Source of the DNA: Amoeboaphelidium occidentale
Lineage: Eukaryota
DNA length: 64,000 nucleotides
Direction: 5' to 3'
NCBI GenBank assembly: GCA_023515795.1
Contig: JALGPX010000043.1
Location: 1-64,000, forward strand
In this document: positions 3,581 through 60,813 of the stretch, in pieces
Position numbering within the stretch: position 1 is the first letter of the stretch
How the letters are laid out: each line of letters opens with the position of its first letter
The notes under the pieces: model-generated
Database searches by the model: none
The model's input: the letters and a program-made list of their open reading frames with translations, nothing else
What the model was told of the DNA's origin: nothing
Position numbers and translations under genes: made by a program

Positions 3581-5651
3581 CTATTCACTTGGTGGAGCAG
3601 AAGTCAATGCCTCAGCCAATTTAATAATTTCCAATTGGAATGCTAAAGAATGTTAATTTTGTTTCAATGGTAAGCGTACCTTCGATAACTTCGCGTTTGA
3701 AATCCCCAAGTTCTTTCCTAATCTCATACATCAATTCATTCTTAATTCTCAAAACCAATTTATCCTCTCTTTCCTGTAATTTATCGGATCTTGAGCCACG
3801 TCTGCTATTGCTTAAGCTGTCTTTGCTTCCTCCTCTTGACCTGACACTACCCTGGCTAGCCAGAGAGTTTTGACTCTTTGATTTCTTAATCTTATCACCA
3901 ACAGAAAGATTGGTTGTGGACTGTTTCAAGGATGCCTTTGACTCTGATCTCACGGCCTCCTTTGAAGGCGGTGGAATTGCCGACAAAGAGCTTCCCTTGC
4001 TCAAAGATGAAGCTGTTTTGTTCGAGATTAACTGAGGCTTAACAGAAGCAATAACTTCATCCCTGGTTTCAGCTAACTGCTGCTCAACAGGGTCTTTTGC
4101 GGCCTTTCTTACGGCTTGCTTCACAGTGGCAATATCGTCATTTGATTGTTGAGTTTTGAATTTTCCTGCTGGTGCAGCAGGAGCTAATAGAATTAATTAA
4201 AAACCAATGGTAATCTTACCTGAAGATTCAGCTCCGTTGTCCAGCTTGGTTTGAGCAAGGTTCTTGTTTGGGATTGCACCTGGAGCAGGAGGAGCAGGTG
4301 CTTCGTTAGGTTTCTTAAATAGCTTATCAGATGATTTTTTGAGATTGCTTTCTTCAGGAGCATCATTCTTATCAGCTTGAATATTCGAAGAAGACCCTGA
4401 AACACTCTTGGAGTTGTCAAGCTTGCCACCTTTGCCTGCCATTGGGGTTGAAACCGTTTTAACGGTTGGAGGGCCCTTCTTGACAGTAGGAGCTGGTGCA
4501 TCATCCCATTCATCGTCATCCTTTTGTTTCTTCTTGTTAACAGGCTTATCTTCTTCCTTTGGTTGCTCCTTTGGTGGCGGTGGAGCTGCAGAACGGAAAC
4601 CACGACTTGCTTTTGGTTTCTCCTCTTCCTTTGGTGCCTCAGGCTGTTTGAACCTATTGAAAATGCTATCAGTATCAATAGCAGCTGAAGCGGCTTTATC
4701 TTCATCTTTAGAATTATCAGGCTTTGATGAATTAGATGGCATTGGAGGTTCATCCGCAGACAGCTTTGAGTCGCTCATCTTCACTACTTTAGCTGCATTC
4801 TCAGTTGGAGCTTTGACTTCTTCCTGCTTTTGACCTCCCAATTTAGCTTTCAGCTGAGATCTGAAGTCTGTTTGAGCCGGTGCTGGTTCGTTCTTTTCCT
4901 GAACTGGCGCAGCTGGAGCGTTGTTTTGGTTTTCGCGCTTTTTGTTTAATTTGGACTGCATTTCGCCAAATAAACCACCAAGAGGGGCGGCAGAAGCTGG
5001 AGCAGCGGTAGCAGCAGGAGCCTTTTTCTCGGTTGCACTATCATCCGGTAGTTTTGATGGACTTTTCTTGAGCTTAATAGCGCCTATAGAAGCGGCCAAA
5101 CTTGATTGTGCGCCATCAGAATTGCCACTGTCAGCGCCTCCATTCGAGACAGATCTACTGTGACCGCCTGATGTAGACTCTAATTGCTGTTGCGTTGGTT
5201 GAGGCGGAGGCGGCGGTGGCGCAGGTTGAGAAGGAGGTTTCGTAGCAGCAGCCATCAAATCCACAATGGCATTTGACATTGCGTTACCAAGAGCATTTGC
5301 ATCATCGGCTGATAGAAAGTTGAAGCCGTAAACGTTTCCAGAATCAATTAGCTGATGAAACGTTTCGGTTGGTGTCGTGTATTGACTTCCATTGTATGAT
5401 AGAATGATGTTAATACAGTATGAATTATCGTTCAGGTTCAAGCCAATTAAGCTATATTGTTAACGCGGACTCTTTACGATATACCTGTAACTAATTGCTT
5501 CTGCGTTATGATACAAGACCAATTGTGTGTGTCCATCACTCATAGGCTTCCATCCAGACGCATCTGTGGTAAATGCTTGACATAATACGTTAGCTATAGG
5601 CTGATCACTACAGAAAGCGTAAGTTGAAACGTGTGTTAAAGCGAACCTCAT
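3581..5651 (-). CDS. Ena/VASP-family actin polymerase (EVH1, polyproline, EVH2 with tetramerisation coil), multi-exon
   Basis: Predicted spliced start MSDQPIANVLCQ; EVH1 VYGFNFLSADDA; PPPPPP; G-actin-binding-like LAASIGAIKLKK; F-actin-binding-like GGLFGEMQSKLNKKRE; C-terminal RIKNELMYEIRKELGDFKREVIEAF. Confidence 0.85.
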
Positions 5652-15553: not shown

Positions 15554-16797
15554 CTATTCATACCAGTGTAGGAACCATAGAATAAACGCCAGTAATAGAA
15601 AGAATAGCAGCATAAAATTACGGTATTCTACTCCGCTCCTTGTAGCTCTTCGGAGTATTTCGTTGCCTCTCAAAACTTTATCTGTTGTTTGGATCGACTC
15701 ATCATGCAGTCGATTGATATCTTGATACTGAGCATTCACGTGCATTTCAAGTTGGTCTTGTAAAGAAGAGATCTCCATAATACTCTGCTCTGCTTTCCTA
15801 TAATGTTAACGCTTCAGATTATCAAATACCTCAGCTCAGTTGCAAGACCATTTAGATGCTCAAATAGGAACTTATTCTCCTTTTCAAGCAAAACTTTTTC
15901 TTGCATTGAAACTTGAGGTTCAGGCTCTTCTACAGGAGAATATTCTGGCGGTAATGAATTCATTGAACCCGTTTGAATTTGATGAGGTCTCTTATTCTCC
16001 GTTTCAAGTGTCACAGCTACTGGCGCACCAGCGAAATCTTCAGTCTTATCCAAAAGTGTCTTGAACCGAATTTCCTGATACTTTTTAAGAACCTCTGAAG
16101 CATCGGATAATTTGTTGCGCAAGTATGTTATGATGATTTGGAAATGCACTTGATAATCCCCGCTTTCACCAACGCCTGACTCTACCATGACCCTTCCTAA
16201 TGCAGCTTTAGTCGTGCAAACAGAAAATCTTACTTGTATCATTTTCCAGAATGCTTATGCGCTCAGAACAGGTCCTCATGAACTGGGAGAATTGCCTTTC
16301 CATATCANNNNNNNNNNNNNNNNNNNAACGCCTGACTCTACCATGACCCTTCCTAATGCAGCTTTAGTCGTGCAAACAGAAAATCTAACTTGTATCATTT
16401 TCCAGAATGCTTATGCGCTCAGAACAGGTCCTCATGAACTGGGAGAATTGCCTTTCCATATCATCCCTGTCTGCTTCTGACATTGTAACGCTGCCTTCTA
16501 ATTGCACATGTCGATTAACGTTTAAATAAGAAACACTGTTCTTCTTTAAAAGTTTCTTCATTTCCATAATGCTTGAGACCTACGCAATGTCAGCTTTTGG
16601 GTTTGCGACAGACTTGAGCATACAATCGACTGTGCTTCGACGGAGAATTGTCGCATTTGCTGACTTCTGGATGCCTTCAGCTTATCCTGAACTTCCTTGT
16701 TCATGTCCCCTTGCTCCTCTTTTATATCATTTATTAAAGATACTTGTCGCTGTCTTCGTTTAATTATGTCCCGGAATGTTGTAGTCAGATCGGCCAT
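15554..16797 (-). CDS. UFE1: ER Qa-SNARE syntaxin-18/Ufe1 (crosses an N-gap with duplicated flanks)
   Basis: N-terminal MADLTTTF, MSEADRDDME, SNARE coil, C-terminal TM ending LWFLHWYE. Confidence 0.85.
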
Positions 16798-43059: not shown

Positions 43060-45437
43060 CTATTGTTTGAAGTTCACTTCCTCTGTGGCGTTTGGTGCCT
43101 CAGCTGTCAATTGGTCGAACTGAGTTTTCTCATGCCACTGTCTTGGACCAAGAAGATTTATCATATCTTCCTTATTAATAACTTCTTTCTTTAACAATAA
43201 TTGTGCAACCTTTTCTACATCTTCCTTCTTTTCCTTGAGTAAATCAACTGTTCTGTCGTATGCCTTTTTGATTAAAGTTCTTGCTTGGTCATCGATTAAC
43301 TTTGCAGTAGCTTCAGAGTATGGTTTCTGGAATCTCTGCTCGTTATCAGACGGATTGCCGTAGGATACTGTTCCCACCTCAGCATTCATACCATATGTGA
43401 CTATTTGTGCATATGCCATCTTTGTTACTTTATCCAAATCATCTTGAGCACCTGTCGTTATGGACGGGAAGAAAATCTGTTCTGAGACTCTTCCACCAAG
43501 CGTCATACACATCCTGTCCATCAATTGATCAGTAGATAGAAGGTATCGTTCTTTTGGCAAGTATTGAGCGTAACCCAGTGCAGCTACACCTCGAGGAATA
43601 ATTGAAACTTTCAATAATGGATCTGCATGTTCCAAATACCATCCGGCAACAGCATGACCAGCTTCATGGTATGCGACAGTCTTCTTTTCTTCAGGAGAAA
43701 GGACTCTTGATTTTCTTTCTAATCCAGCAATCACTCTTTCAATTGCTGCCTCAAAATGTTTCTCTGTAACAGAATCTGCATTGTGGCGAGCGGCGATCAA
43801 AGCAGCTTCATTACAAACGTTTGCAATATCTGCTCCAGAAAATCCTGGAGTTAATGTTGCAAGCTTCTTTGACAATTCTACAAGATCTTCATTAGTCTTA
43901 ATAGGCTTCAAGTGAACACGGAAGATATCGGCTCTTCCCTTGATATCAGGTCTATCGATGGCAATGTGTCTATCAAATCTTCCAGGTCTAGTCAATGCAG
44001 GGTCTAAAGTGTCTGGTCTGTTTGTACCGGCTAAAACAACCACATGTTCGTCAGTACCAAAACCATCCATTTCAACAAGCAATTGATTCAATGTAGATTC
44101 TCTCTCATCATTTCCACCACCAAACTTTCCTTTACCTCTAGCTTTACCGATTGCATCAATTTCATCAATGAAAACAATCGAAGGGGCCATCTTCTTTGCG
44201 TTTGCAAACAGATCTCTAACTCTTGAAGGACCAACACCAACAAACATTTCCAAGAATTCTGAACCTGAAACACTCAAGAACGGAACACCAGCTTCACCGG
44301 CAGTAGCTTTAGCCAACAATGTTTTACCTAAAAAATGTCAGAACTTTAAGATGTAATATTACCTGTTCCCGGAGGTCCAGACAAGATGGCACCCTTTGGA
44401 ATTTTTGCTCCAAGCCTCTCGTATTTCTGTGGGTTCTTCAGGAATCTAACAAACTCCATAATTTCTTCTTTTGCCTCATCCATTCCAGCAACATCCTTGA
44501 ATCTGACTTTGACATCGGATTCCTGGTTGAACAATTTTGCCTTTGACTTTCCAATACCAAACAATCCTTGAGAGCCACCCATGCCACCTTTTGACATACC
44601 ACCAATAGCTCTTTGAGACATCCAAATCATCACACCAATGAAAAGCGCAGTAGGTAGTAGTCCAATAATCACGCTGCTCCAATTGACGCCTGTTTCGTAC
44701 ATAATCTTGATACGATCATCTTCTTTAATGCCTAGTTTATCCTGTACACGATCAACCTTTCTCTCAAAATCTTCAGCAGACGGAATTTCAACTTCGAACT
44801 GATGACCACGCCTTGGCAGCGAAGAATTTCTATCAAACTGAGGTGAATTAGGAATCAAAGTAATTCGAGCCGTGTGCTGATTTAAAATTGATATCTGCGC
44901 AACTTGACCCTTTGAAAGCAGTTCACTTTGGAGTTCTTGATATGATATCTTCTTTGTCGGTGCCATTCCGGAACTTGGAAGTGACATCAGCAATGCAGCC
45001 ATAGCAAACCAAAGTAACGCATTCCTCATTGATTTATCCTGCAAAGGATTCTCATTCTTCTTATCTTTTGAGCTCTTTGGCTTATCTTCTTTGGGCGCCT
45101 CTTTAAACTCGTTTACAGGTCTCTGAGGCTGTTCCTTTGGCGACTGATTCTGCTGGTGCTGCTGTTCAGAAGATTCAGAACGCTTAGGCCCTCTATTAGG
45201 CGCACTCTTTCCAAAGAATCCTTCAAATCCTTCTGGTATCTTCCATTGTGGTTTATCTTGTTCTTGTTTTTCTCTGACGTATCGTGTTGACGTAAACGAT
45301 CTTTTAGGCGCAAGGCTGAATCTCCCTGCGCTTCTTAATCCATTCAATGCGACTGTGCGCTCATTTGATCTCAGCGCACTGGACAATTTGATATCATTCA
45401 GGGCTGTTCTCAAAAGGAATAATCTAAGCGTTGTCAT
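43060..45437 (-). CDS. Mitochondrial m-AAA protease (Yta12/Afg3/AFG3L2)
   Basis: GPPGTG/KT split by an intron, FIDEID, HEAGH zinc motif, two TMs. Confidence 0.95.
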
Positions 45438-56437: not shown

Positions 56438-57979
56438 ATGGCGGAGTCGATTATTACAAAGTCTGATCAAATGTCCGGAGGTCTCGGAATGCACCAGCCA
56501 GGTTCCTCTGGGCTCATGGGCACACCAATTTTAACGGATAGCAGTTATTACAGAGATCAAGTTGATAGAGTTTTAAGGGAGAATAAGCAACTCAGAACAC
56601 GAATGGAGCAATTAGAAAAGGAAAATGTGTCTCTGAAGAAGAGCGTCTTTGATTTAACAAACAGAATATCAGAGCTATTGAGGTCTAATACCTCTACTTC
56701 AAAGTACTTCATGCCGGAACCTTCGATTGATGTCTCAAGCTACGGTGTTCCAGGCCAAAGGTCACAAAACGAAGCTGCGCACTACGTTGGCAGTACAATT
56801 GGCTCGCCTGTAATGGCTGGGAGCTCTGTGTCAAGTTCTTTTATGAATGGCTTACAGAAACAGTTTACAGCTACTTCAGAGCACGTGGGAGAAGATTTGG
56901 CGGTTCTGAAGGGCAAACAAAGCTTTGTGTTGAAGCATGAAATCAAATCGCATTCTGGGGCTGTCTATGTAGTTAAACACTCACCCAATGGTATGTTCAT
57001 GGCTTCTGGTTCTTTTGACAAGACTGTTCGGGTGTTTGATTGTAACAATGATTACGCAGAGGTTCAGTGTTTCAAGAAGCATTCTTTAAATGTTTCAGAC
57101 CTGACATGGTTGCCGGACTCTACGGAAGTTATTTCTGGGTCGTTTGATCAAACATGCAAGATTTTTAATCTTGAAGAGGGTCGCATGGTGCATTCTGTAG
57201 AATGTGAAGGCTTCTTGCAATGCGTCGAAGTTGTACCTAGTGATCCTGCTTTATTCTGGAGCTCTACATCCAAGAAAATAATTGTATTGAATGATAGACG
57301 TAAGCCTAATCCTGCGCTGGTCGTTCGAAATGATGGTATTATCAACTGTATGCATGTTTACAACGATAGCTCAAAGTTGCTTACGGGCGATTCTTCAGGT
57401 TGTTTGAAAACTTGGGATTTTAGAACTGGACAATTGTTAAACAGTTACACTAATGAAACAAAATCTCCAATTAGCTCATTTAGCTTCGTGAGAACGAGTC
57501 TGGATCAAGAGGAACATCGATTCATGGCAGTGAACAGTTATGACAACGTTGTTCGAGTTTATGATCGAGGAGATGATATTGCTCCGAATGCATGCAGATT
57601 GCTTTATGAAGTAAAAGGACCTCATTTGAAGAATTGGCCGATTAAGAATGCGTTCTTCCAACCAACGTTACAGCCTCTTCAGAATGCGCTTGGAGGAGAA
57701 GGAATCGAAGGAAGAGAACACAATGATCGATACATACTTGCTAGTGGTAGCAGTGATGCTAATGTTTATTTGTATTCTGTTAAGTTGGATCAATTGAGTC
57801 GCCCCAGTTCGAGAGGTGTTGGTAAAGTGGAAATCCCAACTGGAGTTGATACCTTGCAAGTACTTCAAGGCCACAGCGATCGAGTTTATGGTGTTTCATT
57901 TCATCCTAGAGATTTATCCCTCGCTTCCTCAAGCTCAGATTTTTCAATTAGAATTTGGAAGCCTCGAACCAAGCAATAA
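56438..57979 (+). CDS. Coiled-coil plus WD40-repeat protein
   Basis: N-terminal coil; HSGAVY, SGSFDKTV, GHSDRVY...SSDFSIRIW. Confidence 0.85.
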   Translation: MAESIITKSDQMSGGLGMHQPGSSGLMGTPILTDSSYYRDQVDRVLRENKQLRTRMEQLEKENVSLKKSVFDLTNRISELLRSNTSTSKYFMPEPSIDVSSYGVPGQRSQNEAAHYVGSTIGSPVMAGSSVSSSFMNGLQKQFTATSEHVGEDLAVLKGKQSFVLKHEIKSHSGAVYVVKHSPNGMFMASGSFDKTVRVFDCNNDYAEVQCFKKHSLNVSDLTWLPDSTEVISGSFDQTCKIFNLEEGRMVHSVECEGFLQCVEVVPSDPALFWSSTSKKIIVLNDRRKPNPALVVRNDGIINCMHVYNDSSKLLTGDSSGCLKTWDFRTGQLLNSYTNETKSPISSFSFVRTSLDQEEHRFMAVNSYDNVVRVYDRGDDIAPNACRLLYEVKGPHLKNWPIKNAFFQPTLQPLQNALGGEGIEGREHNDRYILASGSSDANVYLYSVKLDQLSRPSSRGVGKVEIPTGVDTLQVLQGHSDRVYGVSFHPRDLSLASSSSDFSIRIWKPRTKQ

Positions 57980-58337
57980 CTGGCCCTTCGCTACAGGATT
58001 AGTTCAAATAAAATCCAAATCTTACTTGGAAGAGCGTTACACGAATCGCCGATTTCTCGGCTACGCTGGTGGAGACTGAACAAGTAAATATGCAAGCATA
58101 ATCACCTGACATTAGCCTTCATTTGCATTCAAATCCAAGAAAACGTGCCTGATATTTCGTGCAGCGTTTATGTCCCTGTTCCAAACAGTTAAGCAATCTG
58201 AATTGCAGATTTTAACCGCCCGAAACTTTGTCTGTTTCAACTCATGTAAACAGAATGAGCATAACTTGCAGGGTTCAGNGATGTTCCTGTTCATTGAAGC
58301 ACCCTTCGGAAACTTGCTGAAACTCTTGAAGAAATAA

Positions 58338-58470
58338 CTGGCCCTTCGCTACAGGATTAGTTCAAATAAAATCCAAATCTTACTTAGAAGAGCGTTACAC
58401 GAATCGCCGATTTCTCAGCTACGCTGGCGGAGACTGTACAAGTAAATATGCAGGCATAATCACCTGTCAT
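58338..58470 (-). ncRNA. Putative Fanzor omegaRNA scaffold (second copy at 57980-58112)
   Basis: Lies between the Fanzor remnant and the element 3' end. Minus-strand stems GCUCUUC/GAAGGGC (one G-U) enclose GGAUU/AAUCC and end 3 nt before the junction. Confidence 0.55.
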
Positions 58471-58676
58471 TAACCTTCATTTGCATTCAAATCCAAGAAA
58501 ACGTGCCTGATATTTCGTGCAGCGTTAATGTCCCTCTTCCAAACAGTTAAGCAATCTGAATTGCAGATTTTAACCGCCCGAAACTTTGTCTGTTTCAACT
58601 CATGTAAACAGAATGAACTTAACTTGCAGGGTTCTGAGCGAGCTAGATATATTCTCTTTAAGAAAGTGCATTCGCA

Positions 58677-58711
58677 CTCCAGCTCGCAGCATGTAGACGC
58701 TTGAGCTGGAG
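58677..58711. repeat. Subterminal hairpin at the element's 5' end
   Basis: CTCCAGCTC (58677-58685) pairs with GAGCTGGAG (58703-58711) as a perfect 9-bp stem, with further inner pairing. Confidence 0.8.
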
Positions 58712-58767
58712 CTGCAAGCAATAAGCCTTTTGTTATTTGCCGTCAGTGTTGTTTTTTCACACAACAA

Positions 58768-60813
58768 ATGCCCCAAGCTTCAAATTCGCAGGAAAAGTTC
58801 ACAATTGCTGTGCCAAACAGTCAAAAGCCTGGCTCGTCTGCAATTTACAGGAATAAGTCCAGCCCAGATAAGTTGGCATTTGATGAAAGTCTGCCAAGAA
58901 CTTTGTATGAGAATTTCCAGAAGGGTCTCAAAATTTCTCCTGATGGCCCATGCTTAGGCACAAGAACTATTGACCCAAAAACAAAGAAGGCAGGCGCATA
59001 TCAGTTCCAGACTTACCGACAAGTAAATGAGCGTCTTACTAATTTTGGTGCTGGTTTGCTGCAACTCGGTGGAACTGTTTTAAAACAAGGGGGCGTCGGT
59101 TGGAATGTCGGCTTGTACTCCATCAATAGGCCTGAATGGGTGATTGCGGAACAGGGCTGTAATGCTTATTCGCTGGTCACTGTCGCTTTGTATGATACTT
59201 TGGGTGCTGATACACTTTCCTTTACGGTAAATCATGCAGATTTAAGCGTTGTCGTTTGTTCGCTTGACAAGATTCCTAATCTTCTCAAAGTTTCTTCGAG
59301 TTGCCCAAAGTTGAAGGCGATCGTATCGATGGATGAATTTGGTCCGAATGAGAAAGTCGTAAATGTTCTGAAACAATGGTGCGCAGACAAGAATATTTCG
59401 CTTTACAGTTTCAAAGAGATTGAAGAATTGGGTCAAAAGCACGCAAGAAAGCACATTCCGCCTAAGCAGGATGATATTACAACAATTTGTTATACTTCTG
59501 GTACCACTGGAAATCCAAAAGGAGTAATGGTGTATCATCGTAATTTTGTTGCTGCTGCTGATGGAATTAAATCTCATAATTTGAGTTTCGATAAGAATGA
59601 TGTAATGATCAGTTATTTGCCTCTTGCTCACTGCTTTGAGCGTGTGCTTCAGACTGCAATTTATGGGAACGGTGCATCGATTGGTTTCTATCGTGGTGAT
59701 GTCTTGTTACTTGTCGAAGATATTCAGGCTTTGAGACCTACGTTCTTCCCTTCTGTACCTAGATTATTCAATAGGATCTATGCCAAATTAATTGAAGGAA
59801 CCATCAAGGCTCCTGGTGTAAAGGGTATGCTTTGTAGAAAGGCTGTTGCTGATAAGTTGTACTATTTGAAGGAAGCAAATACATTGCACCATACATTTTG
59901 GGATGGTCTGTTGTTCAAGAAAGTTGCAGCTGTACTTGGAGGACGTGTAAGATTGATGATTACCGGTTCTGCTCCTATTTCAGGTGAAGTTTTAAACTTT
60001 CTCCGAGTTTGTTTCTCGTGTGAGATTTTAGAAGGCTTTGGTCAAACTGAGTGCGCAGCAGGTTCAACTTTGACATTCCCCGGTGATTACATAACTGGTC
60101 AAGTTGGTGTTCCAGTTGTTTGTAATGAAATCAAATTGGTTGATGTGCCGGATATGGGTTATTTTACTACTGGTGATAAACCAAAAGGTGAAATTTGCAT
60201 CAGAGGATACAATGTCATGAAGGGCTATTACAAAGAGCCAGCAAAGACTGCTGAAACACTTGATGAAGAAGGCTGGTTGCACACTGGAGACATTGGAACC
60301 ATCACTGAAAAAGGTTGTGTTGCCATTATTGATAGAAAGAAGAACATTTTCAAACTTGCCCAAGGAGAATATGTTGCACCAGAGCGCTTGGAAGCAGTTT
60401 ATCTGAAATCAAAATTTATAATGCAATGTTTCGTTCATGGAGACTCTTTGCAGAGTGAATTAGTCGCTGTCATTGTACCAGAGCCAGTTCAGTTACAGGA
60501 ATGGGCTAAGAAGAATTTGGATAAAGGTACTTCGTTGGAGATGGAATTATTGTGTCAAAAGAAGGAAGTTCATGCGTTGCTCCTTACTGAGCTCGCTAGA
60601 GTAGGAAAAGCTTTGAAGTTGGCTGGATTTGAGTTGCCAAAGAACATTCATGTTGAGCATGAACCATTTTCCGTTGAGAATGATTTGCTGACTCCTTCTT
60701 TCAAGCTCAAGAGAAATATTGCTGTAAAAAAATACCGCAAGATCCTGGATAAGTTATACGAAGAATTGGAGAAACAAAAACAGGTTGTCGGTGAGACTAA
60801 ATCGATGTTGTAA
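58768..60813 (+). CDS. Long-chain acyl-CoA synthetase
   Basis: YTSGTTGNPKG, SYLPLAH, GFGQTE, GWLHTGD, IIDRKKNIFKLAQGEYVAPE. Confidence 0.95.
   Translation: MPQASNSQEKFTIAVPNSQKPGSSAIYRNKSSPDKLAFDESLPRTLYENFQKGLKISPDGPCLGTRTIDPKTKKAGAYQFQTYRQVNERLTNFGAGLLQLGGTVLKQGGVGWNVGLYSINRPEWVIAEQGCNAYSLVTVALYDTLGADTLSFTVNHADLSVVVCSLDKIPNLLKVSSSCPKLKAIVSMDEFGPNEKVVNVLKQWCADKNISLYSFKEIEELGQKHARKHIPPKQDDITTICYTSGTTGNPKGVMVYHRNFVAAADGIKSHNLSFDKNDVMISYLPLAHCFERVLQTAIYGNGASIGFYRGDVLLLVEDIQALRPTFFPSVPRLFNRIYAKLIEGTIKAPGVKGMLCRKAVADKLYYLKEANTLHHTFWDGLLFKKVAAVLGGRVRLMITGSAPISGEVLNFLRVCFSCEILEGFGQTECAAGSTLTFPGDYITGQVGVPVVCNEIKLVDVPDMGYFTTGDKPKGEICIRGYNVMKGYYKEPAKTAETLDEEGWLHTGDIGTITEKGCVAIIDRKKNIFKLAQGEYVAPERLEAVYLKSKFIMQCFVHGDSLQSELVAVIVPEPVQLQEWAKKNLDKGTSLEMELLCQKKEVHALLLTELARVGKALKLAGFELPKNIHVEHEPFSVENDLLTPSFKLKRNIAVKKYRKILDKLYEELEKQKQVVGETKSML

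Follow-up and report, generated by a model that had tools for sequence, protein, structure and literature searches.

We find in the window (the whole stretch of DNA that was analysed, 64,000 nucleotides of Amoeboaphelidium occidentale) a multi-copy, non-autonomous element of about 377 nt which lies on the minus strand and has been cut down from a Fanzor1 transposon. We think it probable that a single insertion of this element occupies a TTAT over the stop codon of a host WD40 gene, that its 3′ end templates an omegaRNA with UUAU in the scaffold and the guide just upstream of the stop, and that a Fanzor1 acting in trans would cut empty alleles behind a predicted TTTAT. The locus comprises the following features.

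56438..57979, plus strand: host WD40-repeat gene (Pfam WD40); its stop codon TAA (57977-57979) lies within the ATAA target.
57970..57979, plus strand: first copy of the 10-nt target duplication; its last 4 nt (TTAT on the minus strand) are the fixed repeat of the family.
58064..58267, minus strand: C-terminal Fanzor1 remnant of copy 1 with the zinc finger and the RuvC-III RD motif; premature stop at 58114-58112.
58279, no strand: scaffold join, a single N in the sequence.
58280..58337, plus strand: 58-nt flank assigned to another locus by contigs of runs X1 and X2; it ends in ATAA and is a possible gene end.
58338..58714, minus strand: the complete element as assembled (copy 2), 377 nt, delimited by flank break points in sample contigs.
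58677..58714, minus strand: GC-rich hairpin at the 5′ (left) end of the element (DNA fold, z = -2.72; 1 of 200 shuffles was as good).
58715..58724, plus strand: second copy of the target duplication, the same 10-mer, which is single in the empty allele of run X2.
58768..60813, plus strand: host long-chain acyl-CoA synthetase-like gene (Pfam AMP-binding), which adjoins the WD40 gene in the empty allele.

The window is compact and eukaryotic: the 44 open reading frames listed make up 71% of it. The best homologues of the WD40 gene are those of early-diverging fungi (33-45% identity), and the named protein relatives of the element are annotated in the aphelid A. occidentale. The WD40 reading frame ends at its natural C-terminus, as 26 of the 27 first-listed homologues stop about 10 residues or less from the same last WD repeat. 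An earlier note on this DNA had proposed a guide complementary to the last codons of this host gene; the stop at 57977-57979 is the natural one. At 43060-45437 an FtsH-like protease is found in two adjacent open reading frames, probably split by an intron.

The Fanzor1 ancestry is read from the remnant. It corresponds to the last about 68 Fanzor1 codons, and 63 of the 68 residues are identical to the C-terminus of P0125, a 325-residue A. occidentale protein with a Fanzor1 motif. The remnant itself matches Pfam Cas12f1-like_TNB with E = 7.6e-5, short of the curated cut-off. Both candidates from a protein search with the remnant are relatives, and one relative's cluster contains P0125; the search with the 54 residues of the remnant gave no longer homologues, so that P0125 was reached by the cluster look-up. 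The published Fanzor1 pattern is DPG..E-x6-C-x2-C..RD-x5-N (bioRxiv 10.1101/2023.08.09.552727). Residues 95-295 of P0125 fit this pattern and not that of Fanzor2, and the window retains the zinc finger and RD part only. The best PDB matches of P0125 are SpuFz1 (E = 0.016) and GtFz1 (E = 0.097), both weak, the Atlas clusters give TNB/DUF8286 at 0.97-0.98, and similar A. occidentale proteins carry, by eye, the FZ1 label in the supplementary table of PMC10432273. P0125 is short compared with several catalogued relatives (325 versus 559-804 residues) and its C-terminal tail is unlike that of P0122-P0124; a single-sequence AlphaFold model was unusable (pLDDT 30.6).

RuvC-I and RuvC-II are deleted from the element and both copies in the window have premature stops. 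The translation of copy 2 has two stops as well as changes at a zinc-finger cysteine and in the WNRD motif; the interior of this copy may be a mosaic of copies. The element thus has both ends and no intact Fanzor reading frame, and it is present in many copies, with at least 13 and at least 16 distinct flanks at its two ends in run X1. In X1 the contig depth summed over the element exceeds the single-copy level 30- to 500-fold, a figure which we do not take as a copy number. For these comparisons we used contigs from 6 of the 22 listed runs (X-numbered). All runs are present as contigs; the window itself may come from X1, which is hence no independent sample. One contig of X9 departs from the window at 58627 and continues, by eye, with the RuvC-II motif of P0125, thus longer copies exist. 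An intact cognate Fanzor was not found in the protein and cluster searches nor in metagenome and viral contigs. We also note a module boundary at 58473-58475 of copy 2: contigs of X1, X2 and X3 retain the 138-nt 3′ end and continue with a different interior, and other contigs retain the Fanzor codons and continue with a different tail matching P0122-P0124. The subfamily in the window is perhaps chimeric, with parts from two related elements.

As assembled, a repeat of about 300 nt occurs twice, at 57971-58270 and 58329-58628, with 96% identity (12 differences in 299 positions) and with one N and 58 nt in between. The earlier note counted two copies and placed the second one behind the last codons of a second host gene. 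Most likely there is instead one insertion, mis-joined across the N through the repeat, and the 58 nt were brought in from elsewhere. This reading has the following support: the copies straddle the N at 58279, the flank is found on another X1 contig, and the WD40 and synthetase genes meet at an empty site in X2 and X8. Positions 1-81 of a 43,866-nt X1 contig match 58360-58280, so the 58-nt flank starts that contig. Its far end carries another element (guide) end; with both ends facing guide ends this contig cannot fit between the WD40 and synthetase genes. In record 9 of X2 the flank lies mid-contig without the element. Duplicated edges are also found at the two other N gaps of the window. Another X2 record of 14,391 nt spans 57300-57979 and 58715-59100 with ten letters in common (record positions 4591-4600), and in X2 and X8 the loose ends behind 57979 agree, by eye, with the sequence from 58725 on in 28 of 30 letters. 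According to these records the two genes are neighbours with one copy of the 10-mer where the window has two (starting at 57970 and 58715). The predicted empty alleles are therefore present in other samples, X2 and X8; X6 is also without the element at the WD40 site, and none was found in X1.

A real tandem, in which two copies would hold a captured 58-nt host fragment between them, is hardly credible. The divergence of the copies speaks for it, as 12 of 299 exceeds that of the 99% direct duplicates (107 and 137 nt) which flank the two other N gaps of the window (runs of 20 and 19) and which are contig-edge artefacts (2624-2857 and 16171-16463); furthermore the comparison is one of contigs and not of reads across the locus. 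However, the join is an N, the 58 nt run into the 43.9-kb X1 contig with its two guide-facing ends, and the 10-nt duplication brackets the whole pair. The flank has 18 open codons; of the control ATAA/AATAA sites, 45-50% are open over 10 codons. The 18 codons may resemble the C-termini of acyltransferase-3 proteins. At 58725-58728, beside the 5′ junction, the window shows two differences from the X2 and X8 empty alleles, against a divergence of about 2% in the genes; these two differences are possibly a repair scar. In X6 record 23 (57763-57978) a more divergent WD40 allele appears to end in TAG, with the target site gone.

The single insertion has TTAT at both of its ends, as has the family. 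At the guide end ATAA is found in 45 of 49 and AATAA in 42 of 49 flanking contigs among those listed (four runs; sites may be shared between runs). At the other end ATAAA stands beside the element in all five multi-contig consensus rows among the rows listed (16 contigs in X1). On the element strand TTTAT hence precedes the element and TTAT, mostly then T, follows it. The flanks show a TTTAN target and a TTAN duplication, in which a fixed repeat and an end motif encoded by the element look the same; with TTAT fixed either way, the empty site reads TTTAT and then the flank. The allele in the window itself has C, not T, beside the 5′ TTAT, and the terminal bases at its 58714 end are unlike the usual end of the family in other copies. 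Its duplication is 10 nt long; the chance of six matching bases beyond ATAA is 2e-4. Inverted terminal repeats of 13 bp are absent: when the ends were compared in the window and with the usual family end, only the first base consistently agreed. ATAA is missing in 4 of the 49 flanks, and two single-contig flanks read TTGT on the element strand (X1, X2, X8 flanks at 57978). TTGT is possibly a minor target still able to pair in the terminal stem.

We suggest that the 3′ end of the element encodes the scaffold and guide of an omegaRNA with the following predicted parts.

57976..58117, minus strand: predicted omegaRNA scaffold region of copy 1, from folds.
58040-58029 with 57976-57989, minus strand: terminal 12-bp stem of copy 1 with a 2-nt bulge, predicted fold.
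58028-58005, 58061-58048 and 58108-58081, minus strand: inner hairpin, GAAA-tetraloop hairpin and upstream hairpin of copy 1, predicted fold.
57956..57975, minus strand: predicted guide at the WD40 site, starting UGCUUGG after the duplicated UUAU, from the fold and the precedent of the SfAV Fanzor1.

The earlier note read the minus strand as carrying the end of an element derived from Fanzor, with a terminal stem that pairs fully only there, and this is confirmed: the outer stem 58341-58347/58387-58393 forms seven of seven pairs on the minus strand, one of them G-U, which is C-A on the plus strand. Its nested inner stem (58354-58358/58370-58374) is complementary as described, but the favoured fold does not contain it. 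The pairing probability of this inner stem is 0.01 (copy 1) and 0.08 (copy 2) in a 136-nt fold and at most 0.26 in 48 windows, and in copy 2 an inner hairpin at 58363-58386 takes its place. Deletions in other copies hit the same stem, a common one of 1 nt and another of 2 nt. Nested stems of such size moreover occur in 13% of 500 shuffles and in 5% of 500 random 63-mers from the window. The 48 identical terminal nucleotides are likewise present (57980-58027 and 58338-58385) but within chance expectation (p = 0.12, computed given 12 mismatches in 299 nt); the dead coding part contains a longer identical run, of 80 nt. A divergent subfamily (X2 and X6 loose ends behind 58007; X3 record 17) has changes in the inner hairpin loop and in several G-U pairs, and the inner stem of the earlier note is lost in it.

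There is modest support that the 3′ end folds like an omegaRNA scaffold. The fold z-scores of copy 1 and copy 2 are -1.50 and -0.78 for 136 nt and -2.11 and -0.74 for 88 nt, the latter start being set by the stop of P0125 and possibly not ancestral. The 143-nt span of the earlier note gives z = +1.07 and -0.96, no better than shuffles. Both copies have a GNRA hairpin, found post hoc, which occurs in 0.3% (Watson-Crick pairs) to 3.5% (G-U allowed) of 2000 shuffles. Among the variants listed 19 substitutions could be scored: 9 fall on unpaired positions, a pair is kept in 5 and lost in another 5, and none is two-sided. All five pair-keeping stem substitutions are G-U exchanges which work on the minus strand only, and they thus favour a minus-strand RNA without proving constraint. 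An Rfam scan gave nothing better than E = 1.9 (three matches with E = 1.9-3.8, rejected).

The guide appears to be taken from the flank, as had been proposed: each of the two 19-nt guides equals the reverse complement of its flank. Behind TTAT elsewhere in the window, no sequence comes within three mismatches of either 15-nt guide. The claim that the guide covers the stop codon was revised. Most likely it starts 4 nt later, after the duplicated UUAU and without the stop codon, since both ends of the family have a fixed TTAT and UUAU is predicted to lie within the terminal stem as in the Fanzor1s of insect viruses. UUAU lengthens the 7-bp stem to 12 bp. Its pairing probability is 0.8-0.9 in folds without flank (5′ starts up to 136 nt) and in one case 0.73. 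With 10-20 nt of guide added to copy 1 it drops to 0.11-0.39 when the 5′ start is one of the two shortest; on the longest it is 0-0.05.

In the alternative drawn by the earlier note the scaffold ends with CCAG and the guide starts with UUAU over the stop codon. The pairing of UUAU does depend on the window folded, and the fixed repeat leaves the boundary of the element inside TTAT unplaceable from the sequence. Yet with TTAT fixed at both ends, empty sites would offer such a guide no constant TAM, and in the insect-virus Fanzor1s the duplication belongs to the scaffold (bioRxiv 10.1101/2023.08.09.552727). We therefore regard this alternative as very unlikely and retain the guide start behind UUAU. 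The TAM predicted from the flanks is TTTAT. The filled 3′ junction reads GTTAT and lacks the extra T, thus it would escape self-cutting.

We suggest that the element could spread in these following steps. Transcription of the minus strand by read-through or from within the element. Then, processing of the transcript to a scaffold with a 14-20-nt guide and loading of this RNA onto a Fanzor1 made elsewhere. The empty allele would be cut within the last codons of the gene behind the predicted TTTAT, and finally the cut could be repaired from the filled allele (homing; the model is that of PMC10432273 and PMC10055086). Homing by a Fanzor acting in trans is the known model for such loci and would be a candidate here.

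It is also conceivable, with a smaller but appreciable probability, that the element is an inert remnant, a passive mini-transposon whose 3′ end is kept only for the transposase and from which no guide RNA is made or used. The low fold scores and the five of ten stem changes which break pairs, none being two-sided, would agree with this, as would the premature stops in both copies, the failure to find an intact partner and the position of the strongest hairpin at the other end. On the other hand all pair-keeping changes are G-U exchanges of the minus strand, which fits an RNA, the pairing of UUAU agrees with the precedent of SfAV (bioRxiv 10.1101/2023.08.09.552727), and ghost RNAs are functional in S. 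punctatus (PMC10432273). In our view a guide RNA from the 3′ end remains the better explanation.

The predicted guide would run antisense to the host gene because insertions at ATAA, a possible stop codon, have a fixed orientation. No function is required to explain this, and nothing supports the suggestion of the earlier note that the RNA regulates the host gene as an antisense RNA. The insertions may be biased towards stop codons, which one verified case, one unverified case and the 4 of 5 open flanks described below do not suffice to show. A preference of the family for stop codons or for AATAAA resembling poly(A) signals, with the RNAs as antisense regulators of host mRNA ends, is in our estimate highly improbable. 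One verified insertion is at a stop codon, though only 3 of 30 AATAAA and 4 of 64 AATAA sites outside the interiors of reading frames in the window are stops, and four of the five single-contig flanks with TAA at their end have an open frame of 10-11 codons (by eye). But against a background of 45-50% this gives only p of about 0.15-0.19 (hand calculation), 2 of the 27 long reading frames in the window end in ATAA, and the sites are polymorphic for presence and absence among samples, as expected of a parasite and not of a retained regulator. With about 70% of the genome coding, the insertions that survive would include ones that preserve the stop codon. A broader proposal is that this TIR-less Fanzor1 family targets AATAAA at gene ends, where tens to hundreds of mini-copies would form a guide library against last codons; a Fanzor acting in trans would cut the empty alleles within their coding sequence and so drive the filled alleles, with the 10-nt duplication left behind by cutting and repair. 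We consider this proposal unlikely.

Further searches for relatives gave no related loci in metagenome and viral contigs, and a cognate transposase in an autonomous copy was not found. The DNA pattern scan of metagenome contigs had no matches and none of the 151 matches of the protein-pattern scan was confirmed; in viral contigs 0 of 5 and 0 of 4 protein candidates were confirmed. Five viral loci picked up by a 16-mer were rejected as chance, none matching beyond 16-17 nt. Fanzor1 proteins of Amoeboaphelidium are already catalogued (PMC10432273). Supplementary file 3 of that work lists Amoeboaphelidium in 38 rows, of which 21 are FZ1 entries from A. occidentale; the accession of P0125 was not found in the part of this file covered here, and a search of the PMC10530073 supplement, as far as accessible, gave 0 matches. 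Our literature searches, which included PMC3627910, PMC10288648 and PMC10055086, gave no published description of the element; the supplements of bioRxiv 10.1101/2023.08.09.552727 could list related elements.

Natural homing by Fanzors is discussed as a possibility by Saito et al. (PMC10432273). The family is suited for a test of homing: copies are young, filled and empty alleles of one site occur across samples, and a TAM (TTTAT) and a scaffold end can be predicted from the flanks. The element joins the known ghost-type Fanzor1 derivatives and adds to them a TIR-less end type, a corrected guide start and a candidate TAM.

Its closest counterparts are described in fungi, algae, insect viruses and bacteria. 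Like the ghost Spu-1 loci of the Spizellomyces punctatus Fanzor1 (Saito et al. 2023, PMC10432273), it is a non-coding derivative that retains both ends, the 3′ one predicted to be structured here, and its genome is of an early-diverging fungal type; in both, the bases conserved before the left end match the TAM (a predicted one here), and for both guides are proposed to serve a Fanzor in trans. In S. punctatus 134 ghost loci have working omegaRNAs. Spu-1 has, however, 30-nt inverted repeats and the TAM CATA, whereas our element is without such repeats, has a left-end hairpin, retains 68 Fanzor codons and is known from sequence alone.

With the Fanzor1 of the insect virus SfAV (Bao and Jurka 2013, PMC3627910; bioRxiv 10.1101/2023.08.09.552727) the element shares the TTTAN target and the TTAN duplication, and the duplication, which lies inside the scaffold in SfAV, is predicted in the terminal scaffold stem here. 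The SfAV type differs in having 13-bp TIRs and an intact reading frame; here there is no TIR and N is nearly always T. MCi-5 of Mucor circinelloides (PMC3627910) is likewise a fungal Fanzor1 without TIRs, unassigned to a superfamily, with a fixed putative duplication ATTTAT which contains TTTAT. Its copies are long, some with a Harbinger-type transposase, and the likeness is by description only.

The Helitron2 Fanzor1s CRe-1/2/3 of Chlamydomonas (PMC3627910) have a 5′ hairpin, present here at 58677-58714, and a T-rich target. A copy with a non-standard 5′ end and a longer duplication occurs in both (7-19 bp in CRe, 10 bp here). Canonical CRe ends have no duplication and asymmetric TIRs, whereas the usual ends here have the fixed TTAT and asymmetric TIRs are doubtful: by eye a gapped resemblance, TCGC..CAG, can be seen some 10 nt before the 3′ end, at a spacing unlike that of Helitron2 (20-30 bp, upstream of the hairpin). 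Finally, IS200/IS605 TnpB elements such as ISGst2 with the TAM TTTAT (Meers et al., PMC10055086) have the TAM beside the left end and a similar motif at the right end, although in IS605 elements the TAM differs from the right-end motif. They also share the subterminal hairpin, the guide from the right flank and the cutting of empty sites as modelled here. These elements are bacterial and depend on TnpA, whereas here no TnpA was found and the protein is a Fanzor1.
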